Positions 1,591 through 60,326 of a DNA stretch of 64,000 nucleotides are shown here, piece after piece. This DNA is from a virus: the IMG/VR virus record IMGVR_UViG_3300045988_088194; one strand, written 5' to 3'. The number at the start of each line of letters is the position of its first letter. The first letter of the stretch is position 1. The position numbers and the translations under genes are program-made. The notes beneath the pieces were generated by a model. It was not told where the DNA came from. It saw nothing but the letters and a program-made list of their open reading frames with translations, and searched no databases.

Positions 1591-1605
1591 AATGTTTGGG
1601 AAAAA

Positions 1606-1702: not shown

Positions 1703-1714
1703 AAAGAAAAAAAA

Positions 1715-2017: not shown

Positions 2018-2018
2018 C

Positions 2019-6149: not shown

Positions 6150-6192
6150 AAATATACATAGAAATTCACTTACGGAATAATTAGATTTATTG

Positions 6193-6222
6193 GGGAGACT
6201 AATAAAGTCTCCCTTATTTTTT
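6193..6222 (+). terminator. rho-independent terminator after the replication/nucleotide operon
   Basis: GGGAGAC (6193-6199) / GTCTCCC (6207-6213) stem with a 7-nt loop, followed by TTATTTTTT. Confidence 0.7.
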
Positions 6223-6274: not shown

Positions 6275-6306
6275 CTTGGTTAATTAAAATTAAATACTTA
6301 TCTTTG
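6275..6306 (+). promoter_or_regulatory. Bacteroidota-type promoter candidate for the giant ORF
   Basis: CTTG (6275-6278), then 20 nt, then TATCTTTG (6299-6306, fits TAnnTTTG), 26 nt upstream of ATG 6333. It lies in a 183-nt AT-rich intergenic region. Confidence 0.55.
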
Positions 6307-6332: not shown

Positions 6333-9300
6333 ATGGCTTGTGTAAACACAAAGGAAAAAAGTTTTAAAGAGCTAGTTTCTAAATATGGTGCTTCATCAGG
6401 AACTGTAGAAAATGCCATTAAAATTTATATGGATAAAAATAATCTTGAGACCTATGATACTAATTCTCAAGATTTCATAGACCATATGGATTCTTATTTT
6501 CAGCTTAAAAGCAGTAATTTCTACTCTTCTAAAGGTAAGTACAATAGAGCTCATGCTCTTTGGGAAAAAATAAATCCTACACAAAATGTAGCAGATATAA
6601 AGACTGCTACTAAAGAGTATAATGCTCTTGTTGAAATATTTGGAGAAAATAATGTTACTGTTTTTGAAACTTCAGATGGAGGATTTAGAGTTAGGGCAGC
6701 TGAGCCTATATTTGGTGACGGTATTACTTCAGATAAGAAATTATTGAAGGAAATGTCTGACATTCTTTCTAAAGCTCCTAGAGATAAAAATGGTAATCTA
6801 TTAGCTCCTAATGGTAAAAAGTCTAATTTAACTGAAAGACAATATGCTCAAGTAAGAACTAAAGCTTTTAAAGAGTGGTTTGGTGATTGGGAAACATTAG
6901 CAGAAGGACATAATAAAAAACTTAATTTACCTGATAAACCATCTGGTCTTACTGATACTTGGATAAAAGATAATATAGTAGAATTTAAAGGTTTATCTAC
7001 GGGAACTAAATATAATATAGGCTATTCTGGTGGAAGATATTTTATCGTTATAAATATTAATGGAATTAATGTTCCATTCTATAAATCCTCAGGTTTAGGT
7101 GGAAAAAAGAATGTTGAAGCAGGTAAATGGTATCCATTTTTTGGGATATCTAAAAAAGGATGGTTAAATAAGACTACTGAGGAGGAAATAAACAACTACT
7201 ATAATAGTCAAGTACTTGAATTAATTTCTAATAAACTAGATTCATTATTTAATAATGAAGACTATGGTATAGAAATAGTAAATGGTATTCCAGTAAAGAA
7301 GGGTAAACAAGCTAATAACGCTATAGATTTAAACTTTACAGACGGAGAAAAAGTCATAAATAAAGACCTTAATCCTACTGAAAATCATAAAGATAATACT
7401 GTAAATATAGTAAATAGTAATATTGAAAAAGTTAAAAGGAGTATATCTTATACTACTTTAAATAATAAAGTCTCAAAAGTAGTAGATGAAAATGGTGAAC
7501 CTTTGGTTGTTTATCATTATACAGATAATGAAAGTCTGACTAAATTTAGTACAGAGTTTGATAATTATTTCTCAAAGGAAGGTGGTACTAAGAAAGCTAT
7601 ATTCTTTACAACAGATAATGTTGTACCTGGTAGTGAAGATAACTTCTTAACTAATAGAAAAGCTAAGCTGGCATTATTCTTAAATATAAAAAACTTAGAA
7701 GAGTTTCATGGTACTAAAGAAGATTTGCATAAACAAGGAACTTCTTATAGAGAAATAGTAAATAAATCTTCTGAAAGAGCAGGTCTTGAAAATGGTATAG
7801 TATTTACTGGTTTTGATGATAACAAGAAGGAGAATCAAACTATATATGTTGTTCATAATCCAAATCAAATTAAATCAGCTACTAGTAATACAGGAGCTTT
7901 TTCTAAAATTAATGATAGAATAGACGATTTTGAAAGTAATGTAAAAGTTACTGTTGAATATACTCCTATAGGAAAAAGTAGACAAACTTATACTATTAGA
8001 GGGAACAAAATCTTTAATAAAGAAGGTAAAGAAGTCTTTAAGACAGACAGTGTAGATAGAAACAAGATTTTTGCCAATCTTGCAGTACAGCAAGGTAGAG
8101 CAGTAGTAGTAAATCATAAGAATAAAGAGTATGTTGTAAACAACAGAAATCAGATTATCTCTGTTACTACTGGTAAAATGATGCAGTGGGATGAAAAGAA
8201 TGGAGATAGAAATGCAATCATTAAAGCTGCTCAGGAAAAGTTTAGTAAAAACAAACCCTCTGAAAGTATTCAAAAATCTGCGTCTTTTAATTGGGGAAGA
8301 ACTTCAGATAATAATTATGAAGTATCTTCAAAAGGAGATAAAAGATTTTCTGCTCTTAATGCTACCTTTAAGAAAGGTACTGTTATAGATGGAGTAGATG
8401 TAGGAGGAATGACCATTGAAGATGTATATCAGAAGGTCATTAAAAAGAGTGGTAAAGGTAAAGCTCCTGCTGTAGATAGTAAGTTAAATATTTCTTACAG
8501 AGTAAGTACCGAAGGAATTACTAAGCAATATGGAGTAGTAATAGATAAAAATTTAAAAAGAAATTATAGTGAATGGCAAAATGCTAATCCAAATGGTATA
8601 GTTGCGTATAGAGTTAATTATAGTAAATACAATACCCCTGAAGAAGCACAAGCTGGTAGAATAGGTAATCCATTTTCTGAAGGTATAGGACAAGCTAATA
8701 AAGGGGAAGATACTGTACAAAAGTTCTTTATTTGGCTTACTACTGGAAATAACTTTGGTAATCCAAAAGCTACTGAAGAATATAGACAAGCCATTCTTCA
8801 TAAACTAATTAGTACTCCAAAAGGAACTAATATATTATATTATACTGAACTCAATAGACCATCTCATGCAACTGTATTAGGTTATTTAATTAATCATAAG
8901 GAATTTATAACAAACTATAAAGATAGTGCAGAAGATTTCTCTTATACTGAAGGTTATTTACCATTGTGGCAAGAATGGGCTAAACAAAACCCTGAATTAA
9001 TAGAGGAACTAAGAACTAAAGCAGCAGGTAAAACTCTTACTGACCAGTTTGCTAATACAAGAGTAAGTCAGGCAAGAGCTTTGGCTGATATTCTTAATTC
9101 TACTAATACTAAGTCAGAAACTATAGAAGAAGCTCCTATATTTGAAGAAGAAAATAATAATATGCAATCTGCTAAAGAACTTGTAGATAGGATGATAGCA
9201 GATTCAAGAGAGCATATTAAATTTAACAAAGAGGACCATTCCTATATAGTAGATGGAAAAAAGGCTGATACCAGTGTTACTCAGTTTATACATGGTAAGA

Positions 9301-12300
9301 AAGACCTTGGTCAATGGGGAACAGCAGCCTCTGCCATAGGTACAACAGCAGACAGTGTCACAAGAGACTTCTTCAAAGGTGAGCTGAAAGATGAATATCC
9401 AAACTTGTCAGATAAGGACCTTTCCTTTCTCAAGCATGACTTGAAGAGCCTTAGGAACTTCTTTGACAAGAAGTTTGGAAAGGACAAATATACAGTAGTG
9501 ACTGAAGAGTTCCCAATAGCCTCAAAGTATACATACACTGACAAGGATGGAAAACTTAAGGGAGGTGTAATGGCAGGAACTATGGATATGCTTATCTATG
9601 ATAATGAAGGTAACTTCTATATCTATGATATGAAGACTTCAAGAAGTGGTCTCAATGAGAACAAGGTTGCTGGATATGCAAAGCAGCTGACACTCTATAA
9701 GGCTATTCTTGAGGCCAATTATCCAGAGCTGAGAGGCAAGATAAAGGAGCTTAAACTTATTCAGTTTAGGGTAGGTTATCCACAACCTGGAGCTGACTTC
9801 ATCTATTCAGCAACTGATGGTCAGTTATATCTTAATAATGTTCCTATTCAGGAGACTGAAGACTACTATGCACCTCACTTGGATTTTACTGGAAACAGTC
9901 TTGACAATCAGGTGCTTGTTCCAGTAGAACCTGTAAGTATGGATATTCACTTTGAAGGTATGACTGAAGATGAGGTAGAATCAATGAGGGAGGAAACAAG
10001 AGAGCCAGAGAGTACTGAGTTCTCACAGAATGAAGTAGATAGCCAGAGAGATAACCTCTATGGAAACCCTCTGCTTTCAGCTACAGAGAGAACATTCCTT
10101 GCTAACAATGTAATGAGTCTTACTTCCTTTATTGTTACTCACTTACAGACAAATCCTGAGGCTAATCAGTTCTATTTTGGAGACCAATTCAGTAGGCTCA
10201 ACTTTACTAAGATGTCAAGAGAAGACATCATAAGTACTGTTGGGGTAACAAAGATATTTGAGTATATAAAGGAAAGATGGTATAATCCTGATAACAGGAC
10301 TGACATTGATGATTTTGATACTCTTGACAAGTTACAGATAGCCTATGACAACTGGGCAGCCCTTGTGAAGTCTGCCTATGCAAAACTTATAACTCTTGAA
10401 GGTGTTACAGTAGTTGCTGCAAGACCTGATGAAATAAGTAGAGAGGATATTGAGACCTCTTTTCAAGAACAGATAGATGCTGGTGAACTTGAAGAGAAAG
10501 AAAGGGAGTATTGGCAGCTTGGTATAAGAAACATATCAGCAAGGTCAAGTCTTAGTGGTGATATAAGAAGGTCATTTGAAAGGCTCTTTGCCATAGACTC
10601 CAATGGAAATCCTATAAAGGACAAGTTTGGTTTCAATTTTGATACTTTTGTAGATTCTGGTGTTGCTGTAAATAGTATCCTTGAATGGACCAGAACTGCT
10701 ACAACTGTAGAAGAGATGGAGGAGATACTTGATGGAATGAAGGACTCTTATCCTTGGCTTAACTCTATCCTCAATAAGATAAAGGAAGAACCTTTCAGGT
10801 CTCAATTCTTTCAGAATTTCAGAAAGGACTTTACACAGTATAGTATTGTAACTGTGGAAAGGGATGAGAAAGGAAATAAGGTATATCAGACTCAAATAAT
10901 TAACACTAAGGGAGCATCACAGTCTGTACTTGATGAGATTACTACCTATTATAATTCAGGACTTATGCAGAACATCATAATCACTGCTGATGGTATTGAA
11001 GGTAAGGGTAGGGTTAATGTCAAGAATGTTGAGGCTCTTAAGGCTGAGAAGGACAAAATAGTATCTGACCTTAAGGGTGCATTCACTGCTGTGAGAAAGG
11101 AAGTATATAATAACACTCTCAAGAACTCTGTACCTAAGATTACAAAACTCCTAAATGAGTTAGGAATAAGAGTAGATGCCAAGACAGTCTCTAATACCAT
11201 AGTTGGTAAAGAAAGACCTAAGGACATTAATAACTCCCCAGTAATGAAACTTCTGAGTGAAATGTCCTATATGTTTGATGCCTTGCTATCAAAGAAGGAC
11301 TCTACCTCATATAATCCTCTTCTTAAAGGGGAGGAGAAGAACATCTATGGAAATTATAAATCTATAGTTGGACTTATGAGCAAGTATATTCAGGACAGTA
11401 TTGAGTCATCATCCTATGAGAATGGCAAGATGCACTACTCTTTTGTAACTCCTTCTTATATGGGAAAACTTATTCTCAATCTGAAAGATGCCATTGGCAA
11501 TCCAAGCAAGTTCAATTCATTTATGGAAGAGAATTATGGGTCATATAGATGGTTCAGGGAAGAGGATGGAACTTGGAATAATGCATGGCTTGAGTTGATT
11601 TCTGAAAGTAAGGATGCAAGACAAGGCTTGGAACATAAAGTTCAGTTGTCATTTGATGGAACTCCTTACACTGATTTGAGTGAGTTGGGATATACTCTAT
11701 CTCTTATGAGTGAGTACTTCTATGATAAGGGAAGTAGAGGAAAAGGTCCTCAGTGGGCATGGTACAGAGTTCCTATGCTTTCAAATAAACCTTCTTCCGA
11801 ATTTATAAGGTTCAAGAGATACTCAGGTTCTGAATATAAGAGAAGAATCAAGAGGGGACTCAAAATGGTTCTCAATCAGGAAGTTCTTAGGTTCAGAGCT
11901 GTACTTGAAAGAAGTGTGAATGCAAACATTGAACCTATCTCAAACTTTGATATAAGTTCTAAAGTCCTGAAGAAGAATCCTCAGATTGAGGCTAAGATGA
12001 GAGCTGGAGAACCTCTTACTCATGATGACCTTGTGAAGAATGGAAAACTTATAACTGCTGCAAGTGGAGCTTCCTTTAAGTTCCTTGAAGCTTTCAATCA
12101 AAATATAGTTGAAGGTGATGAGCTTGGAATGATGCTTATAGACAAGATAAATGGTGTCAGTGTAAATGAGGATTCTTTTGACAAGTTAGTCAATCAGAAC
12201 CTTGATTCTTACATGGACATTATAGTAAGCAAGGAGATTTCACAGTGGGAGAAGATTGGTCTATTTGATACAGAGGAAGTCAGAAGGGGCGAAGATGTTG

Positions 12301-15300
12301 AAACAAGATATAAGTACATATCTAATCTTACAAGGTCATACTCAACTATAAAGAAAGAACTGTTTGGAAAGGAGAGAAGACTCTCCAAGGAACAGAAGTC
12401 TGAGATAATGCAGGTTATGGAGTCTGAGGCTAAGGCTAATCTTGAAGAGTATGTATGGAATGATATGTTTGCAACTATAAACATAATCCAACTTACTGCT
12501 ACAGACCTTGCCTATTACAAGAATGTAGAGGACTTCCAGAAGAGGTATGCTCAAGTCCATTCTCCTGCAATGAGATTGAATATAACTGCAAGGGATTCAA
12601 AGGGTAGACTCTATTCTGCTGATGGAATGGAAAGAACCATGTACATTACAGATTATGAGGTAGAGTCTGACATAATTCCTAATGTTGAAGAGATATTTGA
12701 CCAGAGGATTTCTTCAATCTCTGACCCTTCTGAAAAGGCTAACATGAAAATGATGAAGGACCTCATAGTTGATTCTTTCAGGAAGATTAATGTAGCAGAT
12801 GCTCAGGGGTATTCATCACCTACTTCATACAGAAAGAAGATGGGTATGATGGGTAAGTGGTCTGATGAAATGGAAGAGGCTTATAATAGAATCAAGAGAG
12901 GAGACTTCAATGTCAATGACCTTGGTGTTGTCTGGCAGCCCTTAAAACCTTTTGTCTATTCCCAGATTAGGAAACCAGGAGGTTCAGATGCTCTTTCTGA
13001 ACTTAAGGTTCCTGTTCAGAACAAGAACTCTGAATATCTTCTCCTCCTTGCAGATGCACTTATGAGAGGGGGAAAGAAGCAGAGCAAACTTGCTGCTATC
13101 TTTGATTTCATGGAGGAATCTGCCTATGATGGCAGAGAGACCCAATTCAATCCAAAGACCAACACTTATGAGGTTGTAAAGGAAGGTACATACAATGGAA
13201 AGGGTATTGATACTGTCCAGTTTGAATCATCTGTGAAGTCAGGAAAGTCTGGAGTTGTGAACATAAATAAGGTAGAATCATATGAGGAAATTAAGAATAT
13301 CCTTAATGAGGCTACATATATCAATTCTGACAGAACTGCTTCTTCTGATAATAATAATGACAGATATAATGTCAATTACATCCATACAATCCCTTTTGAA
13401 GATTATGGCATTCAGCAGGAAGTTCCTGCCCACTTGGTAGACCATGAGCAGCTCATGGGTTCTCAGATGAGAATACTTAGTATAAGTGACATTACCCCAG
13501 GTACTGAGTTCCAGATAGGAGATGAACATCTTAAGAGTGATGAACTTATCAGTGAGTATCAGAATCTTATAAAAGAAAACATTGAGCAGAGTTTTGAAAG
13601 ACTGTGTAAAGATTTCAAGGTCAGAGGAACAAGGCTTGAAAGGAATAAGGCACTTGAGAAAATACTTCAGGAAGCTATTGAAAAGGACCAGAGGTATGGT
13701 GCTGATATACAGAGAGCTTGTTCTCTTGATAAGAATGGAGAATTTATAATCCCACTTAGTGACCCTATACAGTCTATCAGAATACAGCAACTTCTCAATT
13801 CTATTATAAAGAGCAGGATAAACAAGCAGAAGGTAACTGGTGGTCCAGTAGTTCAGGCTTCAGTATTTGGTATGTCAGATGACCTTTCAATAAGATTCAA
13901 GGACAAAGATGGAAATCTCATTGAAACTTATAGTGAGTTTGTAGAGAAGAGGGGTTTCTCAAAGGATAAATCTTCAGCAGCTAAATATAAGAAGTTCATT
14001 AATGACAAACAGGCTTCTGTGGCATACTTTGAGTGCTATATGCCTATTCCTTCTTCTGAACTTGAAGAAGCTCTTACAAGATATGATAAGGATGGACATG
14101 CATACATAATATCAATGGAAGAAGCAGTTAAGGAAGGTATAATTCCTGAAGAAATGAGAAAGGCTATTGGATATAGAATTCCTACAGAGGATAAGTATTC
14201 TATGGCTCCTCTCTATATAAAAGGATTTCTTCCTAAAGCAGCTGGAGAGGCAGTGATGCTCCCTAAAGAGATTACTCTTCTTTCAGGTTCTGACTTTGAT
14301 ATTGACAAGCTGTATGTGATGCTTAAGACTTTCACTCTCAAGAGGAGAACTGATTGGGGTAAACTTGAAAAAGATATTCTCAAATCAAGCAAGGCTAAAG
14401 GAGAAGAGAGAAAGAAGAGAAAGGAAGCCTTGAGGATAGTCATTGAGCAGATTAAGGCTGGAATGGAGTTTAGTGAAGGCACCTTTGAAATGGCTGTGCA
14501 TGACTATTATTATGACCATAGAGACAGGTATGATAGAGCTTCTTTTGAACTGTCTGATGGTGGTACTGATAGAAGGAACAACAGGATATTTGACCTTCAG
14601 TGGGCTGTTCTCACTAACCCTGACACAATGAGCAAGATGTTTAATCCTGGTTCATTTGATGTACAGAAGAAGACTGCAAGAATTGTAAGGATACTTCAGG
14701 AGACAAAGGGTCATACCTATCAGGAGTTGAGCAAGCTTAATCTTGACCAGCTTGATGAAATACTTGACTCTTCAACTGACAGGAATATCATCTACTCAAC
14801 TTCTCAGGTGTACTTCCATAAGCAGAATATGACTGCTGGCAAGTTGATTGGTATATTTGCTAATAATAACACCAGTCACGCATTTATTTCTATGCAGGGA
14901 ATAGACTTAAAGTTAGGAGATGACCTTAAGTTTACATTTGATGGAGTCACAGTAGATGAGAATCAAAATAATAGATTGGACCCACTGAAAGGAAAAAATG
15001 GTAGTTTAATTAGTAAAACTATTGCAGGTTTTCTTGCAGCCTCTGTGGATGCTGTGAAGGACCCAGTACTTAACTTTATGAATCTTAATACATTTACTTC
15101 TGGACCAGCAATGGTTCTGGCAAGACTTGGTTTTGATTCTGACAGTATAGGTCTGCTTCTCTCTCAGCCTATTATAAGAAGGGTGACTGATGAATACTTC
15201 AGGAGGAACAATGAGGGTTACATCTCAGCTGAGGACCTAATTGATGAGTTTCTTGAACAGGACAAGAATGCAAAGGGTTATGAAAAGACTCTTACTCTAA

Positions 15301-16856
15301 CTAACTTCTCTAAAGAAGAACTTGCTCAGGGTATATCACTTAATAGTGATAAAGGAGACTTTCAGACAAGAGCACTTATTTTGTTCAAGAGGTTGTCAAA
15401 AATATCACAGGACTTTGGCACACTTACATTCCTTACTAAGTTCAACTCAGTAACCAATGCTGTTGGTCCAACCATTGCAGATACCCTTGTAATGAAGCAG
15501 AGATATAAGAAGTTCCTTGACAAGTTTGAGGATGGCAATGCAATCTTCTCAGATAATGCAAAGAATGTCATTCAGAACTCTCCTATTCTTGATGCCTTCT
15601 ATACAACCACAGTATCTGATACTGGGGCTTCTCAGTTGATATTCCAGGGATATTTCCCTCAGTACTCTGATAAATTCAATCAGGTTCTTGGAAAGTTCAG
15701 AGAAACCACAAAGGCAAATGTAGATAGCAAGACTATCAATTCCCTTGTCAGTGACTTTGTTCTTTACAAACTTACTGGAGGACCAAACCCAGTTCTTAAT
15801 TCAGATGGAAAGGTAAGAGAAGAGTTCATCCATGACTTTATAGTAGAGTTTAAGGAGAAGGCTGCTGGAATAGTAGATAATGAACTTATCAAGATTATAA
15901 CTGTTAAACCTTCTACTGGAAAATGTCCTGTTCCAACTTTGGAAGCAAAGACTGGTGGATATACTCAGGATGTTCAAGAGAGAGTAAGAGATGCTTGGAC
16001 AAATCTTATAACAAATGAAAGTACAAGAGACCTTGGAGTCAAACTATTCTTCTACAATATGTACAGAACAGGACTTTCATTCAGTCCTAAGACTTTCCTT
16101 CACCTTGCTTCAACTGATGTGAAACTTGCAATTCCAGGATATGTTGAAAGTATTAGGGATATCAATTATAATGACTCCTTTGATGTGAATGACTTCCTTC
16201 TTCAGTATAGAAGGAATCATACAGACAACTTCAGGGTTGTTCCTCATATAACACAGAGAAAGGGAATTGCATCTTCTATCACTGAAGATAGAGCTGGTAA
16301 CAGGAAGATAACCTTCACATTTGCTTCAGACAGTGCTTCTTCACAGTTCATTGTCAAGAAGGTAAAAAGGGGAAGTGGAAAAGTATCTACTAAAGAGACA
16401 ATAGCTGCTCCTGTTATCCTCTATAATGATAAGGTGTATTTCAATCCTGAAATCAACTCAGATGGTTCTATTACTTATACTGAAACAACAACTCTTGGTA
16501 ATACCAACAACTTCCTTGAATATGATATGAATGAATCTGGAAGTGAGATAAGAACTTCTATTCAGAGAACTTCTGAAGAAGATGTACATGAGAAGGAGGT
16601 TCAGGAGTCTCCAGCAAGAGAAGTTCCTGAGGATGATGGAGAGACTGAAGCAGTAGAGCTCTCAGAGACTGATATTGAGAATATACTCAGTGAGATATTT
16701 GATGAGGGTGAACTGGACAGTCTTATGACATCTCTTGTCAAAGGACAATCAAAGAAGGTAGACAAGTATAAGAGTATGATTGAAGAGCACACAGACTCTG
16801 AGACTGCTTCTAAGGTTATGAAGAAAATGATAGATATTGTAAAGGGAATTTGCTAA
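6333..16856 (+). CDS. giant multidomain protein (3,507 aa): polyvalent-protein-like N-terminal modules + PD-(D/E)xK nuclease signature + crAss-type two-barrel RNA polymerase
   Basis: Single uninterrupted ORF. Motifs are listed in the sub-features below. The key RNAP evidence is a beta-prime-like DPBB loop YRIPTEDKYSMAP...LLSGSDFDIDKLYVML. Confidence 0.8.
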   Translation: MACVNTKEKSFKELVSKYGASSGTVENAIKIYMDKNNLETYDTNSQDFIDHMDSYFQLKSSNFYSSKGKYNRAHALWEKINPTQNVADIKTATKEYNALVEIFGENNVTVFETSDGGFRVRAAEPIFGDGITSDKKLLKEMSDILSKAPRDKNGNLLAPNGKKSNLTERQYAQVRTKAFKEWFGDWETLAEGHNKKLNLPDKPSGLTDTWIKDNIVEFKGLSTGTKYNIGYSGGRYFIVININGINVPFYKSSGLGGKKNVEAGKWYPFFGISKKGWLNKTTEEEINNYYNSQVLELISNKLDSLFNNEDYGIEIVNGIPVKKGKQANNAIDLNFTDGEKVINKDLNPTENHKDNTVNIVNSNIEKVKRSISYTTLNNKVSKVVDENGEPLVVYHYTDNESLTKFSTEFDNYFSKEGGTKKAIFFTTDNVVPGSEDNFLTNRKAKLALFLNIKNLEEFHGTKEDLHKQGTSYREIVNKSSERAGLENGIVFTGFDDNKKENQTIYVVHNPNQIKSATSNTGAFSKINDRIDDFESNVKVTVEYTPIGKSRQTYTIRGNKIFNKEGKEVFKTDSVDRNKIFANLAVQQGRAVVVNHKNKEYVVNNRNQIISVTTGKMMQWDEKNGDRNAIIKAAQEKFSKNKPSESIQKSASFNWGRTSDNNYEVSSKGDKRFSALNATFKKGTVIDGVDVGGMTIEDVYQKVIKKSGKGKAPAVDSKLNISYRVSTEGITKQYGVVIDKNLKRNYSEWQNANPNGIVAYRVNYSKYNTPEEAQAGRIGNPFSEGIGQANKGEDTVQKFFIWLTTGNNFGNPKATEEYRQAILHKLISTPKGTNILYYTELNRPSHATVLGYLINHKEFITNYKDSAEDFSYTEGYLPLWQEWAKQNPELIEELRTKAAGKTLTDQFANTRVSQARALADILNSTNTKSETIEEAPIFEEENNNMQSAKELVDRMIADSREHIKFNKEDHSYIVDGKKADTSVTQFIHGKKDLGQWGTAASAIGTTADSVTRDFFKGELKDEYPNLSDKDLSFLKHDLKSLRNFFDKKFGKDKYTVVTEEFPIASKYTYTDKDGKLKGGVMAGTMDMLIYDNEGNFYIYDMKTSRSGLNENKVAGYAKQLTLYKAILEANYPELRGKIKELKLIQFRVGYPQPGADFIYSATDGQLYLNNVPIQETEDYYAPHLDFTGNSLDNQVLVPVEPVSMDIHFEGMTEDEVESMREETREPESTEFSQNEVDSQRDNLYGNPLLSATERTFLANNVMSLTSFIVTHLQTNPEANQFYFGDQFSRLNFTKMSREDIISTVGVTKIFEYIKERWYNPDNRTDIDDFDTLDKLQIAYDNWAALVKSAYAKLITLEGVTVVAARPDEISREDIETSFQEQIDAGELEEKEREYWQLGIRNISARSSLSGDIRRSFERLFAIDSNGNPIKDKFGFNFDTFVDSGVAVNSILEWTRTATTVEEMEEILDGMKDSYPWLNSILNKIKEEPFRSQFFQNFRKDFTQYSIVTVERDEKGNKVYQTQIINTKGASQSVLDEITTYYNSGLMQNIIITADGIEGKGRVNVKNVEALKAEKDKIVSDLKGAFTAVRKEVYNNTLKNSVPKITKLLNELGIRVDAKTVSNTIVGKERPKDINNSPVMKLLSEMSYMFDALLSKKDSTSYNPLLKGEEKNIYGNYKSIVGLMSKYIQDSIESSSYENGKMHYSFVTPSYMGKLILNLKDAIGNPSKFNSFMEENYGSYRWFREEDGTWNNAWLELISESKDARQGLEHKVQLSFDGTPYTDLSELGYTLSLMSEYFYDKGSRGKGPQWAWYRVPMLSNKPSSEFIRFKRYSGSEYKRRIKRGLKMVLNQEVLRFRAVLERSVNANIEPISNFDISSKVLKKNPQIEAKMRAGEPLTHDDLVKNGKLITAASGASFKFLEAFNQNIVEGDELGMMLIDKINGVSVNEDSFDKLVNQNLDSYMDIIVSKEISQWEKIGLFDTEEVRRGEDVETRYKYISNLTRSYSTIKKELFGKERRLSKEQKSEIMQVMESEAKANLEEYVWNDMFATINIIQLTATDLAYYKNVEDFQKRYAQVHSPAMRLNITARDSKGRLYSADGMERTMYITDYEVESDIIPNVEEIFDQRISSISDPSEKANMKMMKDLIVDSFRKINVADAQGYSSPTSYRKKMGMMGKWSDEMEEAYNRIKRGDFNVNDLGVVWQPLKPFVYSQIRKPGGSDALSELKVPVQNKNSEYLLLLADALMRGGKKQSKLAAIFDFMEESAYDGRETQFNPKTNTYEVVKEGTYNGKGIDTVQFESSVKSGKSGVVNINKVESYEEIKNILNEATYINSDRTASSDNNNDRYNVNYIHTIPFEDYGIQQEVPAHLVDHEQLMGSQMRILSISDITPGTEFQIGDEHLKSDELISEYQNLIKENIEQSFERLCKDFKVRGTRLERNKALEKILQEAIEKDQRYGADIQRACSLDKNGEFIIPLSDPIQSIRIQQLLNSIIKSRINKQKVTGGPVVQASVFGMSDDLSIRFKDKDGNLIETYSEFVEKRGFSKDKSSAAKYKKFINDKQASVAYFECYMPIPSSELEEALTRYDKDGHAYIISMEEAVKEGIIPEEMRKAIGYRIPTEDKYSMAPLYIKGFLPKAAGEAVMLPKEITLLSGSDFDIDKLYVMLKTFTLKRRTDWGKLEKDILKSSKAKGEERKKRKEALRIVIEQIKAGMEFSEGTFEMAVHDYYYDHRDRYDRASFELSDGGTDRRNNRIFDLQWAVLTNPDTMSKMFNPGSFDVQKKTARIVRILQETKGHTYQELSKLNLDQLDEILDSSTDRNIIYSTSQVYFHKQNMTAGKLIGIFANNNTSHAFISMQGIDLKLGDDLKFTFDGVTVDENQNNRLDPLKGKNGSLISKTIAGFLAASVDAVKDPVLNFMNLNTFTSGPAMVLARLGFDSDSIGLLLSQPIIRRVTDEYFRRNNEGYISAEDLIDEFLEQDKNAKGYEKTLTLTNFSKEELAQGISLNSDKGDFQTRALILFKRLSKISQDFGTLTFLTKFNSVTNAVGPTIADTLVMKQRYKKFLDKFEDGNAIFSDNAKNVIQNSPILDAFYTTTVSDTGASQLIFQGYFPQYSDKFNQVLGKFRETTKANVDSKTINSLVSDFVLYKLTGGPNPVLNSDGKVREEFIHDFIVEFKEKAAGIVDNELIKIITVKPSTGKCPVPTLEAKTGGYTQDVQERVRDAWTNLITNESTRDLGVKLFFYNMYRTGLSFSPKTFLHLASTDVKLAIPGYVESIRDINYNDSFDVNDFLLQYRRNHTDNFRVVPHITQRKGIASSITEDRAGNRKITFTFASDSASSQFIVKKVKRGSGKVSTKETIAAPVILYNDKVYFNPEINSDGSITYTETTTLGNTNNFLEYDMNESGSEIRTSIQRTSEEDVHEKEVQESPAREVPEDDGETEAVELSETDIENILSEIFDEGELDSLMTSLVKGQSKKVDKYKSMIEEHTDSETASKVMKKMIDIVKGIC
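6781..6895 (+). other. domain: FGDWE-motif module typical of large polyvalent proteins
   Basis: DKNGNLLAPNGKKSNLTERQYAQVRTKAFKEWFGDWE. I recall this P-N-G-K-x-S-N-L...F-K-x-W-F-G-D-W-E string as recurrent in giant proteins of conjugative elements and phages. Recognised from memory only. Confidence 0.4.
7480..7910 (+). other. domain: ART-like module of polyvalent proteins (putative ADP-ribosyltransferase fold)
   Basis: VVDENGEPLVVYHYTDNESLTKFSTEFD...KKAIFFTTDN...LFLNIKNL...IYVVHNPNQIKSATSNTGAFS resembles the pattern (vvYHGT..f..Fd...g.YFt...l.ikNp...v....nQIKSA..N.G.F) that I associate with ART-PolyVal domains. Confidence 0.45.
8655..8900 (+). other. domain: DUF4326-like module
   Basis: GRIGNPFSEG...DTVQKFFIWLTTG...YRQAILHKLISTPKGTNILYYTELNRPSHATVLGYLINH follows the DUF4326 layout (GNPF...wl...L.gk.L.C.C....CHa.vL..l) but lacks the Cys residues. 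A YEVSSKGDKRFSALNA module precedes it (8285-8470). Confidence 0.4.
9235..9780 (+). other. domain: PD-(D/E)xK (RecB/Cas4/YqaJ-like) nuclease signature
   Basis: Ordered motifs: HSYIVDGKKADTSVTQF, GTTADSVTRDFF, MAGTMDML (GxxD), FYIYDMKTS (DxK), YAKQLTLYKAIL (QxxxY). Confidence 0.6.
14165..14330 (+). other. domain: beta-prime-like double-psi beta-barrel catalytic loop (DxDxD = DFDID, nt 14292-14306, aa 2654-2658)
   Basis: IGYRIPTEDKYSMAPLYIKGFLPKAAGEAVMLPKEITLLSGSDFDIDKLYVML parallels bacterial beta-prime NRAPTLHRLGIQAF...AFNADFDGDQMAVH (RxPT ... [AS]DFDxD). Confidence 0.65.
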
Positions 16857-16857: not shown

Positions 16858-19800
16858 ATGGTTAAATCTTGTGTTTATGTTCCTACAGTGAAAGTAGGAA
16901 ACCAGGAAGTGGATAGCCAGCTCTTTAGGGAGCTGGTTACCTACACTGGTAATAGAGAATCAGCAAAGTACATTTGGGGACTTACTCAGGTTCCTGAGTT
17001 CATGAGTTCTCTTAAGGGTATTGAGAAGGATAAGAATGGAGAACCTACTCTTTCTTCTCTCACTAAGGCTATTGATATAGACAGTCTATTAGATGAAGGT
17101 ATATCAATAGAAGGTGCTAAGAAAGAACTTGGTGCTATAAATAGTAAAGGGGAACCTGTTATACATTCTTCTACTGATGAGATTATCAACTCAGTAGTTA
17201 AATTCAATAAGAACCATCCAAAGATGGTTGCTGATATTGGAAGTAAAGATGGAGGATATGTAATAAATGTTGAGCCTAAGACTCCTCAGAATGCAACCTC
17301 TCCTGAAAAGCTTGTATTCAACAGTTCTCTTAACAATCAGTTGAGGGGTATCCTTAGAAGGCTTGGGTTTGATGTTGAGGTACTCAGTACTCCAAGATTC
17401 AATGCTATGTTCAGTCCTGAGAATGCAAGAACAAATGCAGAAGGATTAAAGACAGTCATACAGATAGCCAAAGGTCAGAGAGGGGAAGATGCCTTTCCCG
17501 AAGAGTTCAGCCATCTTATGATAGAAGGACTTATCAACCAGCCTTTAGTTCAGAGGCTTGTAAATTCTGTAGGTTCTTATGAAGTCCTAAAGGAAATTCT
17601 TGGTGAAAACTTTGATACCTATGTAAGGCTTTATAAAGGAGATATGGAATCTCTCCAGAAGGAAGCTGCTGGACAACTGCTTCAGAAGTATATCACTGGT
17701 GAGAGTCTTCCTGTAAGTAGGCCTTCTCTGCTTGAAAGACTTTGGAATTGGATTAAGTCCAAGTTTGGCAGTATGTCTGAAGATGATGTTGATAATATCA
17801 TACTACAGGCCAATAGAGACGCTTCTCAGGTAGCAAGTTCTATCCTTGATGAGTCTATACTTCCATTAGTAGATAAAGACCTTATAGTTAATGCAAAGAC
17901 CTTGTACAATGTAGAGAGGTCTGTATCTGGAATGGAGGAACTGGCTCAGAAGGCTCTTGAGGTTGCAAGTAAGAGACTTGAGATTTTAAGATTAAGAAGT
18001 AGAAGTGGTAGATATAGTGAAGATGACCTTAAGTCAATAAAGAATCTTCAGGACCTTATTGAAAAGAAGAAATACTCCAAGAGCTGTCTTGCTTTTCTTT
18101 CAGATAGCCTTCAACAGTTAGAACAACTGAATACCAACTTAAGTAAACTTGATGCTAACAACCTTAGTGAAGAGTCAGACTTGAACAGAATCAGAAAGAT
18201 TAGTTCTACTCTAAGGAAAATTAAGGAGTTCTCAGATGCATATGAGCCTATCATCAAACAGATGATGAGTATAGATGCTATGAAGGAGAGAGGAGAGGTT
18301 GAACTGTCTGCTGAAGATGCTGCTACTATTGCAGACAAGGCTTCCTCTGTATTCAGAATAATCACCAAGATTAACTCTGGGTATAAGAGCATGAGGTTCA
18401 ATACTCTTTACAGCTTCCTTAAGATGTACTGGGGGGAGGATAAGATTATTGATTCTGGAAAAGATAAGGGCAAGAGAATTACTCTTGAAATGATAATGAA
18501 GATGGCTGATAAGGATATTAACTTCCTTGACAGATATATCAGTTCAATGAGTGATGCATCAGACCCAATGCTGTCTCTTGTAGATAAGGTAGTCAAATCT
18601 ACACAGTCTAAGAGGGATTCAGTGCTTGAGGAGGTTCTTGCAGGAGTGAGAAGTGCCCATACTAAACTTTCACAGGCTGGATATACTACAGACTTTATGT
18701 ATGAGAGAGACAAGAATGGAAAGCTTACTGGAAGAATAATAAGTGATATTGACTTTGTTAAGTTTAAGGAGGAGTATGATGCTGAGAAGAAGAGACTTAT
18801 GGATGAAAAACTTCCTTACTATACAGTCAAGTCAAAACTTGATGCATGGGAAAGAAGACATACTGAAACTGTTCTTATAGATGCAGACTCAGGTAGAAAG
18901 GAAGAACTTCCTAAGAAGAGTCTTTATGGTGTTGACAGAATAAGTAAACTTGCACCTGCACAGAGAGAGTATTACAACACTATGATTAACCTTAAGGCTA
19001 CTCTTGACTCTCTAATACCAGCAAGGTTTGCAAATACTTTCAATGCAGTCCAGATAAGGAATGATGTTACTGAAGCCATCATGGATAATGTGACCAATCC
19101 TAAGAAGTCTGGGAAGATGGTTATAGAGAACCTCAAGGACAGTTTCCTCAGAAGAAGTGATGACACTGACTGGGGAGATACAACAGTTCTTGGTGATGGA
19201 GAATCCCCTATTCTTACTAAGGCAAAGAAGATAGGTCTGGATTTCTCAGGTAATCCTATACAGAAACTGCCAGTGTACTATACAACTCCTCTTGAAGATA
19301 TGGAGAGGCTGAGTACAGATTTCACCTCATCTATTATGGCATACGCATCTATGGCAATAAACTATAATGAGATGAGTAAAGTGATTGATGTACTTGAACT
19401 TACAAGAGACCTTATCAAAGAGAGGGAAGTTCAGCAGATGTCTGGAGACTCAAAACTGATAGATGCTTTCAAGGTTGTCCATAAGAAGTTCAGTAAGAAC
19501 TATACCAAGTCTGGAGAAAGAACTAACATTGGAGAGAGAATAGATGATTATTATGCTTCTGTTCTGTATGGTCAGCATAAGAAAGATGAAGGAGCTTGGA
19601 ATGTTTTTGGTAAGGAGATAGATAAAGCCAAGACTATGGATGCTTTGAAGAGTTATACAGGAGCACTTGGACTTGGTCTTAACCTGTTCTCTGCTATAAG
19701 CAATGTCACTATGGGTAAGATGCAGTTGTTCATAGAGGCTATGTCTGGAGAATACTTCAATATGAAAGACTCAGCCATAGGTAAGAAGAACTACTATGCA

Positions 19801-20937
19801 CTTCTTCCACAGTATATGGCAGAACTTAACTCTACAAAGAAAACAAGTAAGCTTGGTCTCCTTATAGACAAGTTTGATGCTCTTGAAGAGTTCTATGGAA
19901 ACCTTAAATCACAAGGGTATTACAAAGGACCTTTGTCAAGAATTATAGGTTCTGCAAATATATTCTTCCTTAACAACATGGGAGAGCACTATCTTCACAG
20001 TAGGAATATGCTGGCTATGCTCAATAATGTCAAAGTAAAGGACAGAAGTGGAAAAGAGATGAGCCTGTTTGATGCTTTTGAAGTAAAGACAGACCCTGAA
20101 GGGGCATCAAAGATAGTCCTTAAGGAGGGAACAAAAGACCTTGATGGTAATCTTCTTTCTACAGAAGGGCTTGACAGGAACTCTGAATTGTATGAAGAAG
20201 TGGAGAAGAGATATGATGACTTCATTACAAACCAGAAACTAAGGATTGGAAAGGTCAATCAATCTCTTAATGGTGCATTCAATGAGACTGACAAAGGAGC
20301 TATCCATAGATATTCTCTTGGAAGACTTGCTATGCAGTTTAGACAGTGGATGCCTGCCCATTACTCAAGAAGGTTCTCAAGTGCAAGTTATGATGCCAAA
20401 CTTGACCATTGGAGAGAAGGTTATTACAGAACTATAGCAAGATTTGCTATAAACCTTATGAAAGATATAGGCAGAGCAAAGTTTGACCTTGCAACCAACT
20501 GGAACAGTCTTAGCACCCATGAGAAGGCAAACATAAGAAGGGCTTTAACAGAACTTGGAATGTTTGCTACACTTTCAGCACTTATTGCCATGATAGGACC
20601 TGAGAAGGATAAGAAAGGCAGATGGGGCGAGAGAATGATTGTATATCAGCTTAAGAGAATGCAACTTGAGACTGGTGCCTCTATACCTTGGTTCTCAGCC
20701 ATTGAGAATGCATGGACCATATTACAAAGTCCAGCAGCAGCCATAAACAGTTTCAATGGACTGCTTGATTTGGTTAAGTTCTGGAACATGTTTAATGAAC
20801 TTGAATCTGGAAGATACAAGGGGTGGAGTGAGTGGGAGAGAGATGCTTCACAGGCAATTCCTCTTTATGGTCAGCTTAGGAAGATAGCAGACCTCTCTGA
20901 GGAAGATTATATGTACACTATATTTGCTGATAGATAA
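16858..20937 (+). CDS. large protein (1,359 aa), partner of the giant ORF; virion/ejection-associated candidate
   Basis: The ATG sits 1 nt after the giant ORF stop (TAATATG). Coiled-coil rich, with C-terminal hydrophobic helices (ALGLGLNLFSAISNVTMG, LGMFATLSALIAMIG). No catalytic motif recognised. Confidence 0.8.
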   Translation: MVKSCVYVPTVKVGNQEVDSQLFRELVTYTGNRESAKYIWGLTQVPEFMSSLKGIEKDKNGEPTLSSLTKAIDIDSLLDEGISIEGAKKELGAINSKGEPVIHSSTDEIINSVVKFNKNHPKMVADIGSKDGGYVINVEPKTPQNATSPEKLVFNSSLNNQLRGILRRLGFDVEVLSTPRFNAMFSPENARTNAEGLKTVIQIAKGQRGEDAFPEEFSHLMIEGLINQPLVQRLVNSVGSYEVLKEILGENFDTYVRLYKGDMESLQKEAAGQLLQKYITGESLPVSRPSLLERLWNWIKSKFGSMSEDDVDNIILQANRDASQVASSILDESILPLVDKDLIVNAKTLYNVERSVSGMEELAQKALEVASKRLEILRLRSRSGRYSEDDLKSIKNLQDLIEKKKYSKSCLAFLSDSLQQLEQLNTNLSKLDANNLSEESDLNRIRKISSTLRKIKEFSDAYEPIIKQMMSIDAMKERGEVELSAEDAATIADKASSVFRIITKINSGYKSMRFNTLYSFLKMYWGEDKIIDSGKDKGKRITLEMIMKMADKDINFLDRYISSMSDASDPMLSLVDKVVKSTQSKRDSVLEEVLAGVRSAHTKLSQAGYTTDFMYERDKNGKLTGRIISDIDFVKFKEEYDAEKKRLMDEKLPYYTVKSKLDAWERRHTETVLIDADSGRKEELPKKSLYGVDRISKLAPAQREYYNTMINLKATLDSLIPARFANTFNAVQIRNDVTEAIMDNVTNPKKSGKMVIENLKDSFLRRSDDTDWGDTTVLGDGESPILTKAKKIGLDFSGNPIQKLPVYYTTPLEDMERLSTDFTSSIMAYASMAINYNEMSKVIDVLELTRDLIKEREVQQMSGDSKLIDAFKVVHKKFSKNYTKSGERTNIGERIDDYYASVLYGQHKKDEGAWNVFGKEIDKAKTMDALKSYTGALGLGLNLFSAISNVTMGKMQLFIEAMSGEYFNMKDSAIGKKNYYALLPQYMAELNSTKKTSKLGLLIDKFDALEEFYGNLKSQGYYKGPLSRIIGSANIFFLNNMGEHYLHSRNMLAMLNNVKVKDRSGKEMSLFDAFEVKTDPEGASKIVLKEGTKDLDGNLLSTEGLDRNSELYEEVEKRYDDFITNQKLRIGKVNQSLNGAFNETDKGAIHRYSLGRLAMQFRQWMPAHYSRRFSSASYDAKLDHWREGYYRTIARFAINLMKDIGRAKFDLATNWNSLSTHEKANIRRALTELGMFATLSALIAMIGPEKDKKGRWGERMIVYQLKRMQLETGASIPWFSAIENAWTILQSPAAAINSFNGLLDLVKFWNMFNELESGRYKGWSEWERDASQAIPLYGQLRKIADLSEEDYMYTIFADR

Positions 20938-26311: not shown

Positions 26312-28120
26312 TTATAAAGGAAATGTTGAAACCTTTGAACTTGTCTTTGATGCTTCTGGTGCTGCACCATTGTATGAATTATACAATGCCCCATAGAAGG
26401 TATTCAACATATTGTCCATAGCCATCTTTGCCTCATTGCTGTTGGTGTCATATTGAGAAGACTGTGCAAAGTTTGTAATCATCTCCAGGAACTCATCTCC
26501 AGGAATTACCCCAACAGGTGTTGGAACTCCTATGTTATGGAATGCTGCTGAGTTATCTATTTCATAACTTCCATAGGAACCTTCTATAATGGACTTTCCA
26601 GTGACAGGATTAAACTGTATTGTTGCAGCACTGTCATTGAATATCTTGGACAGGGTTTCTTCATCAGGAGCAGCCTTACTGTCTCCTAACTTATGAATCC
26701 TCTTTCTGACTTCCTTCTTATCTGACCTATCCTCTATTCCAGACAGAATAGCTGCTCTCAGTTCCCTCATTGCAAGGTCAGATTGAGTAGTCTTGAACTT
26801 TGCATACTTATTTACAGCTACAGCCTTCTTCAATGATAATTCCTGTTCTTTTATAAGAGAGTCAATATCATCTGTTCCATACTGTTTAGAGAGGTTAGTA
26901 TAAGAGTTATATACAGGGTTTTCAGTCCTATACTCCTTATCCATCTTTGGAGTACTCCCTCCAACCATAGCGTATGAATCAAGGCTCCTCTTTAAGTCAG
27001 CTTGTAGATTCTTAAGTCCTATATCAGTATCAGGATTCCATTCTGGATTTTCATTCTGCCTTTTTGCTATATAGCTCTCAATTCTCTTTGCCTTGTCATC
27101 CAATACCCTGTTGGCATAGCCCATCCTTGATGTATAAGGAGATACAGTCTCTCCTCTATCTATTGAGTCTTTATATGCCCTAAGATTCTTAAGGTCCTCA
27201 TTCAGTTGTTTAGCATTGGCATCCCTGTCAATATTAAGCTCAGTTCCTACATAATCATAGAAGATAGGCTGCTGAGAATCTTTTTCTCTCATCTTCCACC
27301 TTTCATAAGGTGAAAGGAAGTTTCTATCCTGTAGGGTATCATACTTAGTAGTACCAATAGCATTATAGAGACCACTTGTTATATAGTCTATTGCTCTCTT
27401 CTTTGTACTATTATCAGCCCAAGAATCAATTCCTGAAGACTCATAAACCTGCTTTATTATATTTCTGAGTTCCTCCGGAGCATCCTTGTTAAATTGAGAA
27501 GCAAGGACTATCTCTTCAGGAGTATATCCTGATTTTTCCATAGTCTGCCAGTATTGTCCACCAAGTATGTGTTCCCACTTCCTTGGGTCTGACCTCATAG
27601 ATTTAGCAAGATTAGAAGCCATATCTCCAGCCTGCTTAGCAAGTACTGCTCCTGAATAGGATGCTCCATAATCAATCTCTGGATTTGCAATGAAGTCATC
27701 AAGACTCATAGTAGAAGCATCCCTCTGATACATGAGGGTAGGATTCTCAGCAAGTGCCTTTCTTTGCTCATCAGCAAGCTGTCTCCTTCTTGTATAAGCC
27801 TGCTCTATTGGAGTTATCTCCTGAGAATATCTGCCCTTCATTTTCAGAAGGTTCTGTCTGCTTACCTGAGTAAGTCCTTGACTGGCAAGAGCATCAGCCT
27901 GACTCTTAAGGTCTTCAGAGTATCTCTTGTACATCTGATAGGCTTTAGGGTCAGTCTGCTCATTTGCTATATTCTCCCATACACTTGCTTTAGTATCAAG
28001 GTCTGCATATTCAGTCTCAAGAGCCTGATGTGCTACTGTAGCTTCCTGCAAGGGTCTTACCAACTCATCATAAGAGAATGGTCTGAACTTACTTCCTATA
28101 GTTACATATGATGTTGCCAT
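26312..28120 (-). CDS. virion-associated protein candidate (602 aa)
   Basis: The start ATG overlaps the upstream stop (TAATG at 28118-22). Lies between two large ejection-like genes. No motif recognised. Confidence 0.7.
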   Translation of the reverse strand: MATSYVTIGSKFRPFSYDELVRPLQEATVAHQALETEYADLDTKASVWENIANEQTDPKAYQMYKRYSEDLKSQADALASQGLTQVSRQNLLKMKGRYSQEITPIEQAYTRRRQLADEQRKALAENPTLMYQRDASTMSLDDFIANPEIDYGASYSGAVLAKQAGDMASNLAKSMRSDPRKWEHILGGQYWQTMEKSGYTPEEIVLASQFNKDAPEELRNIIKQVYESSGIDSWADNSTKKRAIDYITSGLYNAIGTTKYDTLQDRNFLSPYERWKMREKDSQQPIFYDYVGTELNIDRDANAKQLNEDLKNLRAYKDSIDRGETVSPYTSRMGYANRVLDDKAKRIESYIAKRQNENPEWNPDTDIGLKNLQADLKRSLDSYAMVGGSTPKMDKEYRTENPVYNSYTNLSKQYGTDDIDSLIKEQELSLKKAVAVNKYAKFKTTQSDLAMRELRAAILSGIEDRSDKKEVRKRIHKLGDSKAAPDEETLSKIFNDSAATIQFNPVTGKSIIEGSYGSYEIDNSAAFHNIGVPTPVGVIPGDEFLEMITNFAQSSQYDTNSNEAKMAMDNMLNTFYGALYNSYNGAAPEASKTSSKVSTFPL

Positions 28121-30393: not shown

Positions 30394-30410
30394 TATATAA
30401 TCATTTGCTG

Positions 30411-60316: not shown

Positions 60317-60326
60317 ATATTTATTG

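Follow-up and report, generated by a model that had tools for sequence, protein, structure and literature searches.

A crassvirus RNA polymerase gene extended at its N-terminus by exchangeable polyvalent-type modules

Introduction

A 64,000-nucleotide stretch of viral DNA (IMG/VR virus record IMGVR_UViG_3300045988_088194), referred to below in its entirety as the window, contains a single open reading frame (ORF) of 3,507 amino acids (aa) at 6333..16856 (+), which encodes an ortholog of the RNA polymerases ΦcrAss001 gp50 and phi14:2 gp66 enlarged by a modular N-terminal region of ~1,230 aa. As in polyvalent proteins, several disparate domains are brought together in one polypeptide: an ADP-ribosyltransferase (ART)-like domain, a RecB-type nuclease, a DUF4326-like domain, an RNA polymerase, and at least four other modules. 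We regard it as probable, on balance, that this ORF is a crassvirus virion RNA polymerase organised as a polyvalent cargo protein, by which effectors are delivered along with the polymerase. The protein is one member of a common, unannotated architecture, not a singular fusion, and exchangeable enzyme modules of the polyvalent type are found on crassvirus polymerases and on the cargo proteins that accompany them.

No phages are more abundant in the human gut than crassviruses. Their polymerase family and its packaging have been published, as have giant multidomain proteins of the transcription block, some of them with a PDDEXK domain (PMC7886860), and the phi14:2 study described block proteins fused into polyproteins and a zincin protease in gp65. 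A review records crassvirus polymerase genes that reach ~6,000 aa, so that the size of the giant ORF is not in itself unusual. The searchable literature, outside which lies the 2018 founding crAss paper, ties no crAss-like phage to polyvalent proteins or ADP-ribosyltransferases, places no ART-PolyVal, DUF4326-like, domain X (see below) or helicase modules on a crassvirus polymerase, and describes neither a leader-plus-slot organisation nor an exchange of cassettes between gp50 and gp49.

A single gene with a crassvirus polymerase core

The giant ORF begins with ATG and has no internal stop, in the ORF listing and in its translation alike, and is thus the one uninterrupted 10.5-kb frame described in the initial annotation. 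All the motifs quoted there are found in the translation: LLAPNGKKSNL at residues 156-166, FKEWFGDWE at 179-187, VVYHYTD at 392-398, FFTTD at 424-428, NQIKSATSNTGAF at 511-523, SSKGDKRFSA at 665-674, GNPF at 778-781, SHATVLGYLINH at 844-855, a PD-(D/E)xK signature made up of D1085 ... D1099-M-K1101, and DFDID at 2654-2658 (nt 14292-14306). An open frame of 3,507 codons cannot have arisen by chance at 38% G+C, and the standard code applies, because none of the 15 tRNA genes in the window is a suppressor. The identical 3,507-aa protein, annotated “hypothetical protein”, occurs on six public contigs, the longest of 98.5 kb (98,529 bp), and a 99.5%-identical copy on a seventh contig covers residues 1-2855; a frameshift or an assembly chimera near 9.3 kb, which would split the frame into two genes, is therefore very unlikely. 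The ORF is real, and relatives also keep the fusion in a single frame, among them cluster P0239 (56 members, of which the 15 listed are all 3,299 aa long), P0241, P0255, P0258 and others.

The polymerase core occupies 10035..16853 (+) (aa ~1235-3507) and has 949 representative homologs. With aa 1151-3507 as query, the only sequence in the PDB to be matched was phi14:2 gp66 (6VR4), at E 3.6e-37 and in three collinear stretches. Its catalytic loop, DFDID (14292..14306, +; aa 2654-2658), aligns with gp66 DFDID at 1361-1365, where window SGSDFDIDKLYVML lies opposite gp66 TGSDFDIDKMYVML and the metal-binding DFD[IV]D loop is in the aligned position; in the phi14:2 study gp66 is a virion protein that transcribes early genes, and every Asp of DFDID is needed for its activity. 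By tblastn, 131 phage records were retrieved at less than 60% identity (33-35% in the best 30), of which 43 cover at least 80% of the query; the crassvirus polymerases among them are 33-35% identical across 84% of the query and, where annotated, are labelled “putative RNA polymerase”. No Pfam or PHROGs family was matched by aa 1200-3507, whose identity comes from the PDB, tblastn and exhaustive phmmer searches. Both phi14:2 gp66 and the ΦcrAss001 polymerase align with the core, gp66 residue 315 with window residue 1461 and gp50 residue ~223 with 1335, which bears out the ~1,150 extra N-terminal residues estimated initially, and similarity to other Steigviridae polymerases places the start of the conserved core at aa 1231-1238. 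Between core and nuclease lies a linker that reads as acidic from the sequence (9828..10034, +; aa ~1166-1234). The core evolves under constraint, with a ratio of nonsynonymous to synonymous substitution rates (dN/dS) of 0.07-0.11 against the P0239 lineage.

Relatives carry an insert with an HNH-endonuclease gene between polymerase codons 2616 and 2617, 38 codons before DFDID, which splits the gene into two ORFs (7192-8087 in L005, 13361-14201 in L008, and 11522-12361 in L001, which is cr116_1). The insert of L005 holds a group I intron (Rfam RF00028, 56.4 bits, E 2.5e-13). A search of the window for introns found none, and the corresponding site, 14180..14181 (+), at exactly the position of the intron in relatives, is empty.

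The ART-PolyVal domain and the nuclease

The ART-like module (7467..7937, +; aa 379-535) matches Pfam PF18760, ART-PolyVal, with E 5e-13 and 50.5 bits against a cut-off of 31.2 bits, over the full 140-position model (aa 385-523), and is predicted with a local confidence score (pLDDT) of 81-93. The initial assignment as ART-like thus stands, but a canonical triad does not accompany it, for the residues at the three positions are H395, F424 and N487, and activity is not assured. The third position, set by alignment and predicted strands, is less certain than the first two; among homologs it is D in 37 and N in 78. In 208 homologous segments H395 and an NQIKS motif are nearly invariant, and H-F-N is the commonest combination (69 segments, in a set biased to close relatives). 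Purifying selection acts on the domain (dN/dS 0.17 against the P0239 lineage). It is kept for some function, though ADP-ribosyl transfer cannot be assumed.

The PD-(D/E)xK signature noted initially belongs to a RecB-family nuclease (9153..9827, +; aa ~941-1165) with PDDEXK_1 at 25.2 bits (cut-off 22) and phrog_298 “exonuclease” at E 1.3e-7. Its catalytic motifs are intact: D1085, D1099-M-K1101 and KQLTLYK (QxxxY) are invariant relative to orthologs borne on gp47-type proteins. The nearest solved relatives are the nuclease domains of AdnA/AdnB and EXO5 (PDB profile E 0.002-0.05). The module is under purifying selection (dN/dS 0.09) and has a G+C content at third codon positions (GC3) like that of the downstream part of the gene. 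Orthologs 35-37% identical lie near the C-terminus of gp47-type proteins in DAC15, cr106_1 and cr116_1, and within ΦcrAss001 gp47, proteins of 2,222-2,341 aa; in the window and in L005 it is the polymerase that carries the nuclease, and their gp47 homologs, of 1,767-1,768 aa, are ~450-570 aa shorter. Judged by this distribution, the RecB-type module has changed carrier between gp47- and gp50-type proteins. A PDDEXK domain in transcription-associated large crAss proteins was noted earlier (PMC7886860).

Taken together, the matches to 6VR4, PF18760 and PDDEXK_1 confirm that polyvalent-type modules and a nuclease are fused in one ORF to a crAss-type two-barrel RNA polymerase with a DFDID loop.

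Domain X and its nested domain

The SSKGDKRFSA and GNPF...SHATVLGYLINH segments were initially taken as a single DUF4326-like module, and this reading held only in part: there are two domains, one inserted in the other, and only the nested one is remotely DUF4326-like. The outer domain, which we call domain X, corresponds to phrog_9995 and is predicted with pLDDT >90 in both its N-terminal half (8274..8492, +; aa 648-720, with SSKGDKRFSA) and its C-terminal half (8919..9152, +; aa 863-940). Its match in BFVD is an uncharacterised 142-aa protein of a Delftia phage (E 1.9e-5), and in Foldseek searches of both AlphaFold models against the PDB nothing significant was retrieved, domain X included. 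The two halves are contiguous in most homologs, and the nested domain (8493..8918, +; aa 721-862, GNPF...SHATVLGYLINH, without cysteines) stands alone in P0123, P0135, P0151 and others; the same nested arrangement, at 82% identity, makes up a stand-alone 341-aa protein, P0121.

DUF4326 (PF14216) belongs to the rhodanese-phosphatase clade, is proposed to process phosphates on ADP-ribose derivatives (PMC9503650), and has GNPF ... C-x-C-x-P-x-x-C-H as its conserved motifs. Aligned by hhalign with DUF4326 segments, the nested domain gave P 8.8e-5, against P 0.3-0.6 for controls, and a probability of 60%, in a collinear alignment that shares GNPF. In Pfam, aa 641-940 remained unmatched by PF14216 even at E 10, and homologs of the nested domain have no precomputed PF14216 match. 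Elsewhere, the partners of domain X are DUF4326, SLOG-family domains (YAcAr, cpYpsA), Macro, Kinase-PolyVal and fragments of T7-type RNA polymerase. Domain X was also considered as DUF4326 itself, and this was rejected, as Pfam DUF4326 adjoins domain X in P0189, P0214 and P0238; an assignment of aa 650-930 to cpYpsA/SLOG was rejected likewise, the cpYpsA match in P0082 lying downstream of the region homologous to the window.

Domain X is in addition found at the N-terminus of ~520-aa proteins of the T7-type RNA polymerase family PF00940 (P0217-P0235; cluster P0218 has 114 members). Since it is fused to these as well, domain X accompanies two unrelated types of polymerase.

Leader, adaptor and other segments

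The protein begins with a leader (6333..6713, +; aa 1-127) that stands at the very N-terminus in related polymerases and in some gp49-type cargo proteins, such as P0007, which is in the gp49 position. It is present in 95 of the 150 representatives described below, starting at residue 1-12 in 90 of them, and has no match in the PDB or Pfam. That it might be the displaced N-terminal domain of gp66 was considered and dropped, the leader profile having no match to the N-terminal or the cleft-blocking region of gp66.

Next comes the LLAPNGKKSNL...FKEWFGDWE segment (6714..6917, +; aa 128-195; phrog_30335; pLDDT 83-88), which proved to be a recurrent motif of polyvalent and DarB-like proteins. This GDWE adaptor is a unit of ~50 aa repeated ahead of effector domains in polyvalent proteins, in up to five copies per protein among the matches, with APNG and F..WFGDW as invariant columns; the matches include proteins annotated as DarB-like antirestriction proteins or methyltransferases. 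Across leader and GDWE together (6333-6986, aa 1-218), dN/dS against the P0239 lineage is 0.63, to be compared with the 0.17 of the ART domain and the 0.07-0.11 of the polymerase; it could reflect relaxed or diversifying selection.

The segment between GDWE and the ART domain, termed mid (6918..7466, +; aa 196-378), is predicted with pLDDT <50 and has no match in Pfam; a small beta-rich piece of it recurs in a structural protein, 1,957 aa long, from Cellulophaga phage phi17:2. It is absent from the P0239 cluster and present in P0001 at 88% identity. The module m540 (7938..8273, +; aa 536-647), likewise without a Pfam match, has a dN/dS of 0.28 and occurs in 12 of the 150 representatives. Searched separately in Pfam at E 10, the leader, GDWE, mid, m540 and X/nested segments returned noise only, and phmmer of aa 1-1200 against the PDB returned no match, gp66 included.

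A common, unannotated architecture

An exhaustive phmmer search with aa 1151-2350 against 1.84 billion cluster representatives yielded 949 relatives, the best 150 of which were scanned with hidden Markov models made from the window's own modules. The leader was found in 95 of these, the nuclease in 49, the ART domain in 25, GDWE in 21, domain X in 14, m540 in 12 and the nested domain in three. Extensions ahead of the equivalent of window residue 1151 are common, with a median of ~650 aa and a maximum of ~3,350 aa among the 150, and Pfam adds further combinations: an SF1 helicase, a nuclease and a Zeta-toxin-like kinase precede the polymerase in P0306, and ART-PolyVal and DUF1848 occur in P0383. 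GenBank itself holds a case in cr116_1, whose QOR59392.1, annotated as hypothetical, has leader, GDWE and ART before the polymerase. The suggestion that the fusion is exceptional must consequently be given up, with ART joined to this polymerase in 25 and the nuclease in 49 of the 150, and with the ART-PolyVal prototype published on an N4-type polymerase. Exchangeable modules of this kind offer a possible explanation for the range of crassvirus “polymerase” genes from ~2,200 to 6,000 codons.

Cassette mobility

In the closest relative, L005, whose flanking sequences are 74-78% identical at the DNA level, the leader is joined directly to the nuclease, and blastn shows an in-frame block of the window gene with low GC3 (6711..9167, +; aa ~127-945) to be absent. 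GC3 is 0.15-0.17 for aa 1-945 and 0.34-0.38 for the rest of the gene, other window genes lying at 0.26-0.38, and it is uniformly 0.15-0.20 in the P0239-type gene of the candidate donor lineage, L012. Proteins of the P0239 cluster have the leader, GDWE, ART, m540, nuclease and polymerase, without mid or the X/nested pair. Between the window and this lineage the synonymous divergence (dS) is 0.22-0.37 in leader, ART and m540 and 1.5-2.4 in nuclease and polymerase, a 4-10-fold difference; because it is so much lower in the former than downstream, the 5′ part was exchanged long after the backbones split. Residues ~1-945 were acquired by recombination, most likely from a crassvirus lineage of lower G+C content, similar to P0239.

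The sharp rise of GC3 at aa ~950 and the lack of the block in L005 are also what might be expected of an artefact, that is, of two genes joined by a sequencing error or of two phages joined in a chimera at the composition boundary near 9.1 kb. This we hold to be scarcely credible, given that the protein recurs on the contigs described above, that leader, ART, nuclease and polymerase share one frame in independent lineages, and that in-frame purifying selection is seen on either side of the boundary; the leader upstream of the block is, moreover, homologous to that of L005, so that native sequence borders the block at either end.

Exchange extends beyond polymerases. In distant crassviruses, gp49-type proteins whose backbone shares only 28% identity with the gp49 homolog of the window contain, between their residues ~208 and ~215, a GDWE+ART unit that is 81-88% identical to that of the window. 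Its carriers include P0009-P0055, P0008 and P0025, and dozens of such clusters, of 1,527-1,531 aa, occur on ~100-kb contigs; with the leader the unit forms the N-terminus of another gp49-type protein (P0007, locus L013 2133-6440). In-frame exchange of cassettes is thereby documented between phages whose carrier proteins are 28% identical. The carriers of modules are of the gp47, gp49 and gp50 types, which are virion cargo in ΦcrAss001, and a scan of the window's other genes found none that carry them.

Genome setting

The gene lies in a conserved neighbourhood. Its order in the window, Thy1, a small gene, the giant ORF, a 1,359-aa gene, a convergent 1,768-aa gene, C2 and C1, matches ΦcrAss001 gp54-gp51, gp50, gp49, gp47, gp46 and gp45, and upstream Pfam identifies a family A DNA polymerase, metallophosphatases and Thy1. 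Immediately downstream is a gp49-type cargo protein (16858..20937, +; 1,359 aa), 31% identical to ΦcrAss001 gp49 over its full length and labelled “RNA-polymerase subunit” in relatives, followed by a gp47-type cargo protein (20993..26299, -; 1,768 aa), which lacks the nuclease module present in homologs; neither matched a Pfam or PHROG family. Cargo proteins 2 (26312..28120, -; Pfam crAss_CARGO2, E 2.8e-117) and 1 (28120..30441, -; crAss_CARG1, E 9.5e-50) complete the series. Mass spectrometry has shown that virions of ΦcrAss001 contain gp45, gp46, gp47, gp49 and gp50 (PMC10172136). With the closest classified phages, Steigviridae/Asinivirinae, protein identity is only 33-44%, from which the window phage is judged to be an unclassified Steigviridae-like crassvirus.

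A strong terminator-like hairpin with a T-run (6192..6214, +) ends the upstream gene block, after a 210-aa gene, and a promoter-like element, TATCTTTG (6299..6306, +), stands 27 nt before the ATG. This element, weak evidence by itself, fits TAnnTTTG, which we take to be the Bacteroidota -7 consensus; no match to the full two-part Bacteroidota promoter pattern was found upstream of the giant gene, and a sigma-70 promoter scan is uninformative here, the phage being one of Bacteroidota. Together, hairpin and element weakly suggest that the giant gene starts its own transcription unit.

Elsewhere in the window, 15 tRNA genes (Met, Thr, Leu, Phe, Tyr, Cys, His, Ile, Trp, Asn, Ala, Pro, Asp, Glu, Gln) lie at 60233-62321 (-). 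At 510 aa, the DNA polymerase A ORF seems shorter than expected of a crassvirus PolA, perhaps because it is split; beyond this DNA polymerase fragment lies a stretch poor in ORFs (1590-2269), and then two long ORFs that overlap on opposite strands (2269-2982, +; 2320-2967, -).

Discussion

Polyvalent proteins, including one in which an ART is fused to an N4-type virion polymerase, have been proposed to be injected with the DNA (PMC5512222), and presence in the virion is known for the polymerases phi14:2 gp66 and ΦcrAss001 gp50 (PMC10172136 for gp50). On the reading that we favour, of a polymerase that brings effectors with it, the slot after the leader would hold exchangeable in-frame modules (GDWE, mid, ART-PolyVal, m540, and domain X with its nested domain). 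The gene would be transcribed late from its own start, and its product packaged in the cargo zone of the capsid, like ΦcrAss001 gp50 and phi14:2 gp66, with or without cleavage, passed out through the tail together with the DNA or in front of it, and then refolded. The core would transcribe early genes, and the attached modules would be at work there and then: the ART-like module with NAD+ on a host (or nucleic-acid) target, the X/DUF4326-like pair on nucleotides derived from ADP-ribose, and the nuclease on DNA ends, possibly in the service of counter-defence.

Several observations weigh against this reading. The active site of ART-PolyVal has been described as H in strand 1, Y in strand 2 and D in strand 5 (PMC5512222), and in the window only the first is present, the strand-2 position being occupied by F424 and the fifth predicted strand by N487; the best relevant Foldseek match for an ART fold, the PARP domain of tankyrase 2, is not significant (E 0.44). 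The nested domain has LYYTELNRPSHA at the position of the family's LVCWCAPxxCHG, so that the cysteines of DUF4326 are absent. Searches of aa 1-1200 in NCBIfam and PADLOC returned nothing, and family searches gave no function for leader, mid, m540 and X, which amount to ~40% of the extension. Among crAss-type polymerases, presence in the virion and rifampicin-resistant early transcription are known only for those of phi14:2 and ΦcrAss001, both without an ART module, and gp50 is free of these modules in the cultured crassviruses examined. At 390 kDa, the protein must unfold to pass a tail channel of <50 Å (PMC10172136), a constraint that may speak for cleavage ahead of packaging. In the six large proteins encoded by the block, one of them of 1,885 aa (30497-36154), the HExxH (zincin) motif does not occur, and Pfam scans of the giant ORF and the block revealed no peptidase family; a zincin metallopeptidase, a frequent though not obligatory theme of polyvalent proteins, is thus missing, and the processing step proposed for such proteins is left without a visible agent.

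Different roles for the modules have to be considered against this background. It is possible, though we think it unlikely, that they serve the polymerase itself, the nuclease (with an SF1 helicase in some relatives) opening the entering DNA end to give a single-stranded template and the ART-like domain and X regulating or anchoring the enzyme. According to the phi14:2 study, gp66 transcribes single-stranded or denatured DNA well and double-stranded DNA poorly; without exception the nuclease is carried by a cargo or transcription-block protein, of the gp47 or gp50 type, and PMC7886860 likewise notes a PDDEXK domain in transcription-associated large proteins; selection constrains the nuclease as tightly as it does the core, and its codon composition is native; in P0306 a helicase and a nuclease stand together before the polymerase; and AdnAB and EXO5, its nearest solved relatives, are end-resection nucleases. 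The idea that the nuclease may prepare a single-stranded template for the polymerase has real weight, but the argument suits the nuclease only. The ART, X and DUF4326-like domains occur sporadically (in 25, 14 and 3 of 150), have been exchanged horizontally and are foreign in composition, in the manner of accessory conflict genes, and ΦcrAss001 gp50 works without any of these modules.

Modules acting at the other end of the cycle would be expected if the protein were a polyprotein, cut before or during packaging so that the core alone enters the capsid and the rest acts late in the producing cell, for example against abortive infection or superinfecting phages. The phi14:2 study suggests that fused giant block proteins are “likely cleaved into individual components”, an acidic linker separates nuclease from core, and a terminator-bounded start with a host-type promoter element fits late expression, which would leave the modules already in the cytoplasm. 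We nonetheless find this improbable: no protease domain or HExxH was found in the block, the modules are confined to the types of protein that ΦcrAss001 carries as virion cargo (gp47, gp49, gp50), no other gene of the window having any, and it is hard to see why a leader should be conserved at the very start of the protein, 1,100 aa away from the core, unless the two share a fate. Quite improbable, too, is that the modules are catalytically dead passengers, that is, binding or structural domains, decaying remnants or mere bulk with no enzymatic effector function. The H-F-N triad in place of H-Y-D, the cysteine-less DUF4326-like domain, the high dN/dS of leader and GDWE and the very low confidence with which mid is predicted would all be compatible with this, but the ART domain is held under purifying selection with H395 and NQIKS nearly invariant, the H-F-N form is the commonest and is kept at 81-88% identity across carriers that have diverged to 28%, and the nuclease retains every catalytic motif.

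With more doubt than confidence, the delivery of effectors with the polymerase may be generalised to a plug-in system of crassviruses, in which leader and GDWE would mark a slot, in ejected cargo proteins (gp50, gp49), for in-frame effector cassettes swapped by recombination between distantly related phages, the leader or adaptor perhaps serving as a handle for packaging and ejection or for recombination. If so, a phage could re-arm its first-minute arsenal without touching the polymerase, the fused nuclease (and, in some lineages, helicase) might prepare the polymerase's single-stranded template, and the slot might be usable for the delivery of engineered proteins into Bacteroides. The ART-like domain with its unusual site, the NAD/ADP-ribose-linked domain pair and the RecB-type nuclease are in any event candidates for functions by which Bacteroides phages take over the host early or counter its defences.

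Comparison with known systems

The closest functional reference points are phi14:2 gp66 and ΦcrAss001 gp50, which have a homologous two-barrel core, an aligned DFD[IV]D loop and the same position in the transcription and cargo block; they are, however, 2,180 and 2,412 aa long and lack N-terminal modules, and the window protein adds ~1,100-1,150 aa. The design itself is shared with cr116_1 (Pamirivirus faecium, MT774389; QOR59392.1) and with clusters P0239, P0060 and P0054, where leader, GDWE and ART are in frame with the polymerase, as in the window. These differ in having neither the mid segment nor the X/nested pair, and are annotated as hypothetical only; in cr116_1 and P0060 the polymerase is split by an intron-borne endonuclease gene, and in cr116_1 the nuclease is on the gp47-type protein.

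Outside the crassviruses, the head-packaged ART of T4, Alt, is injected with the DNA and embodies the same concept of a virion-delivered ART that acts at the first moment (PMC5512222), but Alt, a stand-alone protein from another ART clade (R-S-E), has a demonstrated activity on host RNA polymerase. In Thermus phage P23-45, a two-barrel virion polymerase is fused to a large protein of other function (bioRxiv 10.1101/2022.12.01.518664); its partner is a structural tape-measure protein and not a set of enzyme modules, and the likeness to the window protein is one of architecture. A further parallel is the virion RNA polymerase of Roseovarius Plymouth podovirus 1, the prototype of ART-PolyVal, described in PMC5512222, which makes no mention of crAss phages. 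It is a giant virion-associated polypeptide that, like the window protein, combines an early-transcription polymerase with ART-PolyVal and conflict modules in a mosaic and fast-changing architecture, but its polymerase is T7-like and single-subunit, whereas that of the window is of the two-barrel type, an unrelated fold, and the window protein has no zincin peptidase. Because the polymerase folds of the N4-type and window fusions are unrelated, the design arose independently, and the strategy of arming a polymerase with such modules evolved twice.

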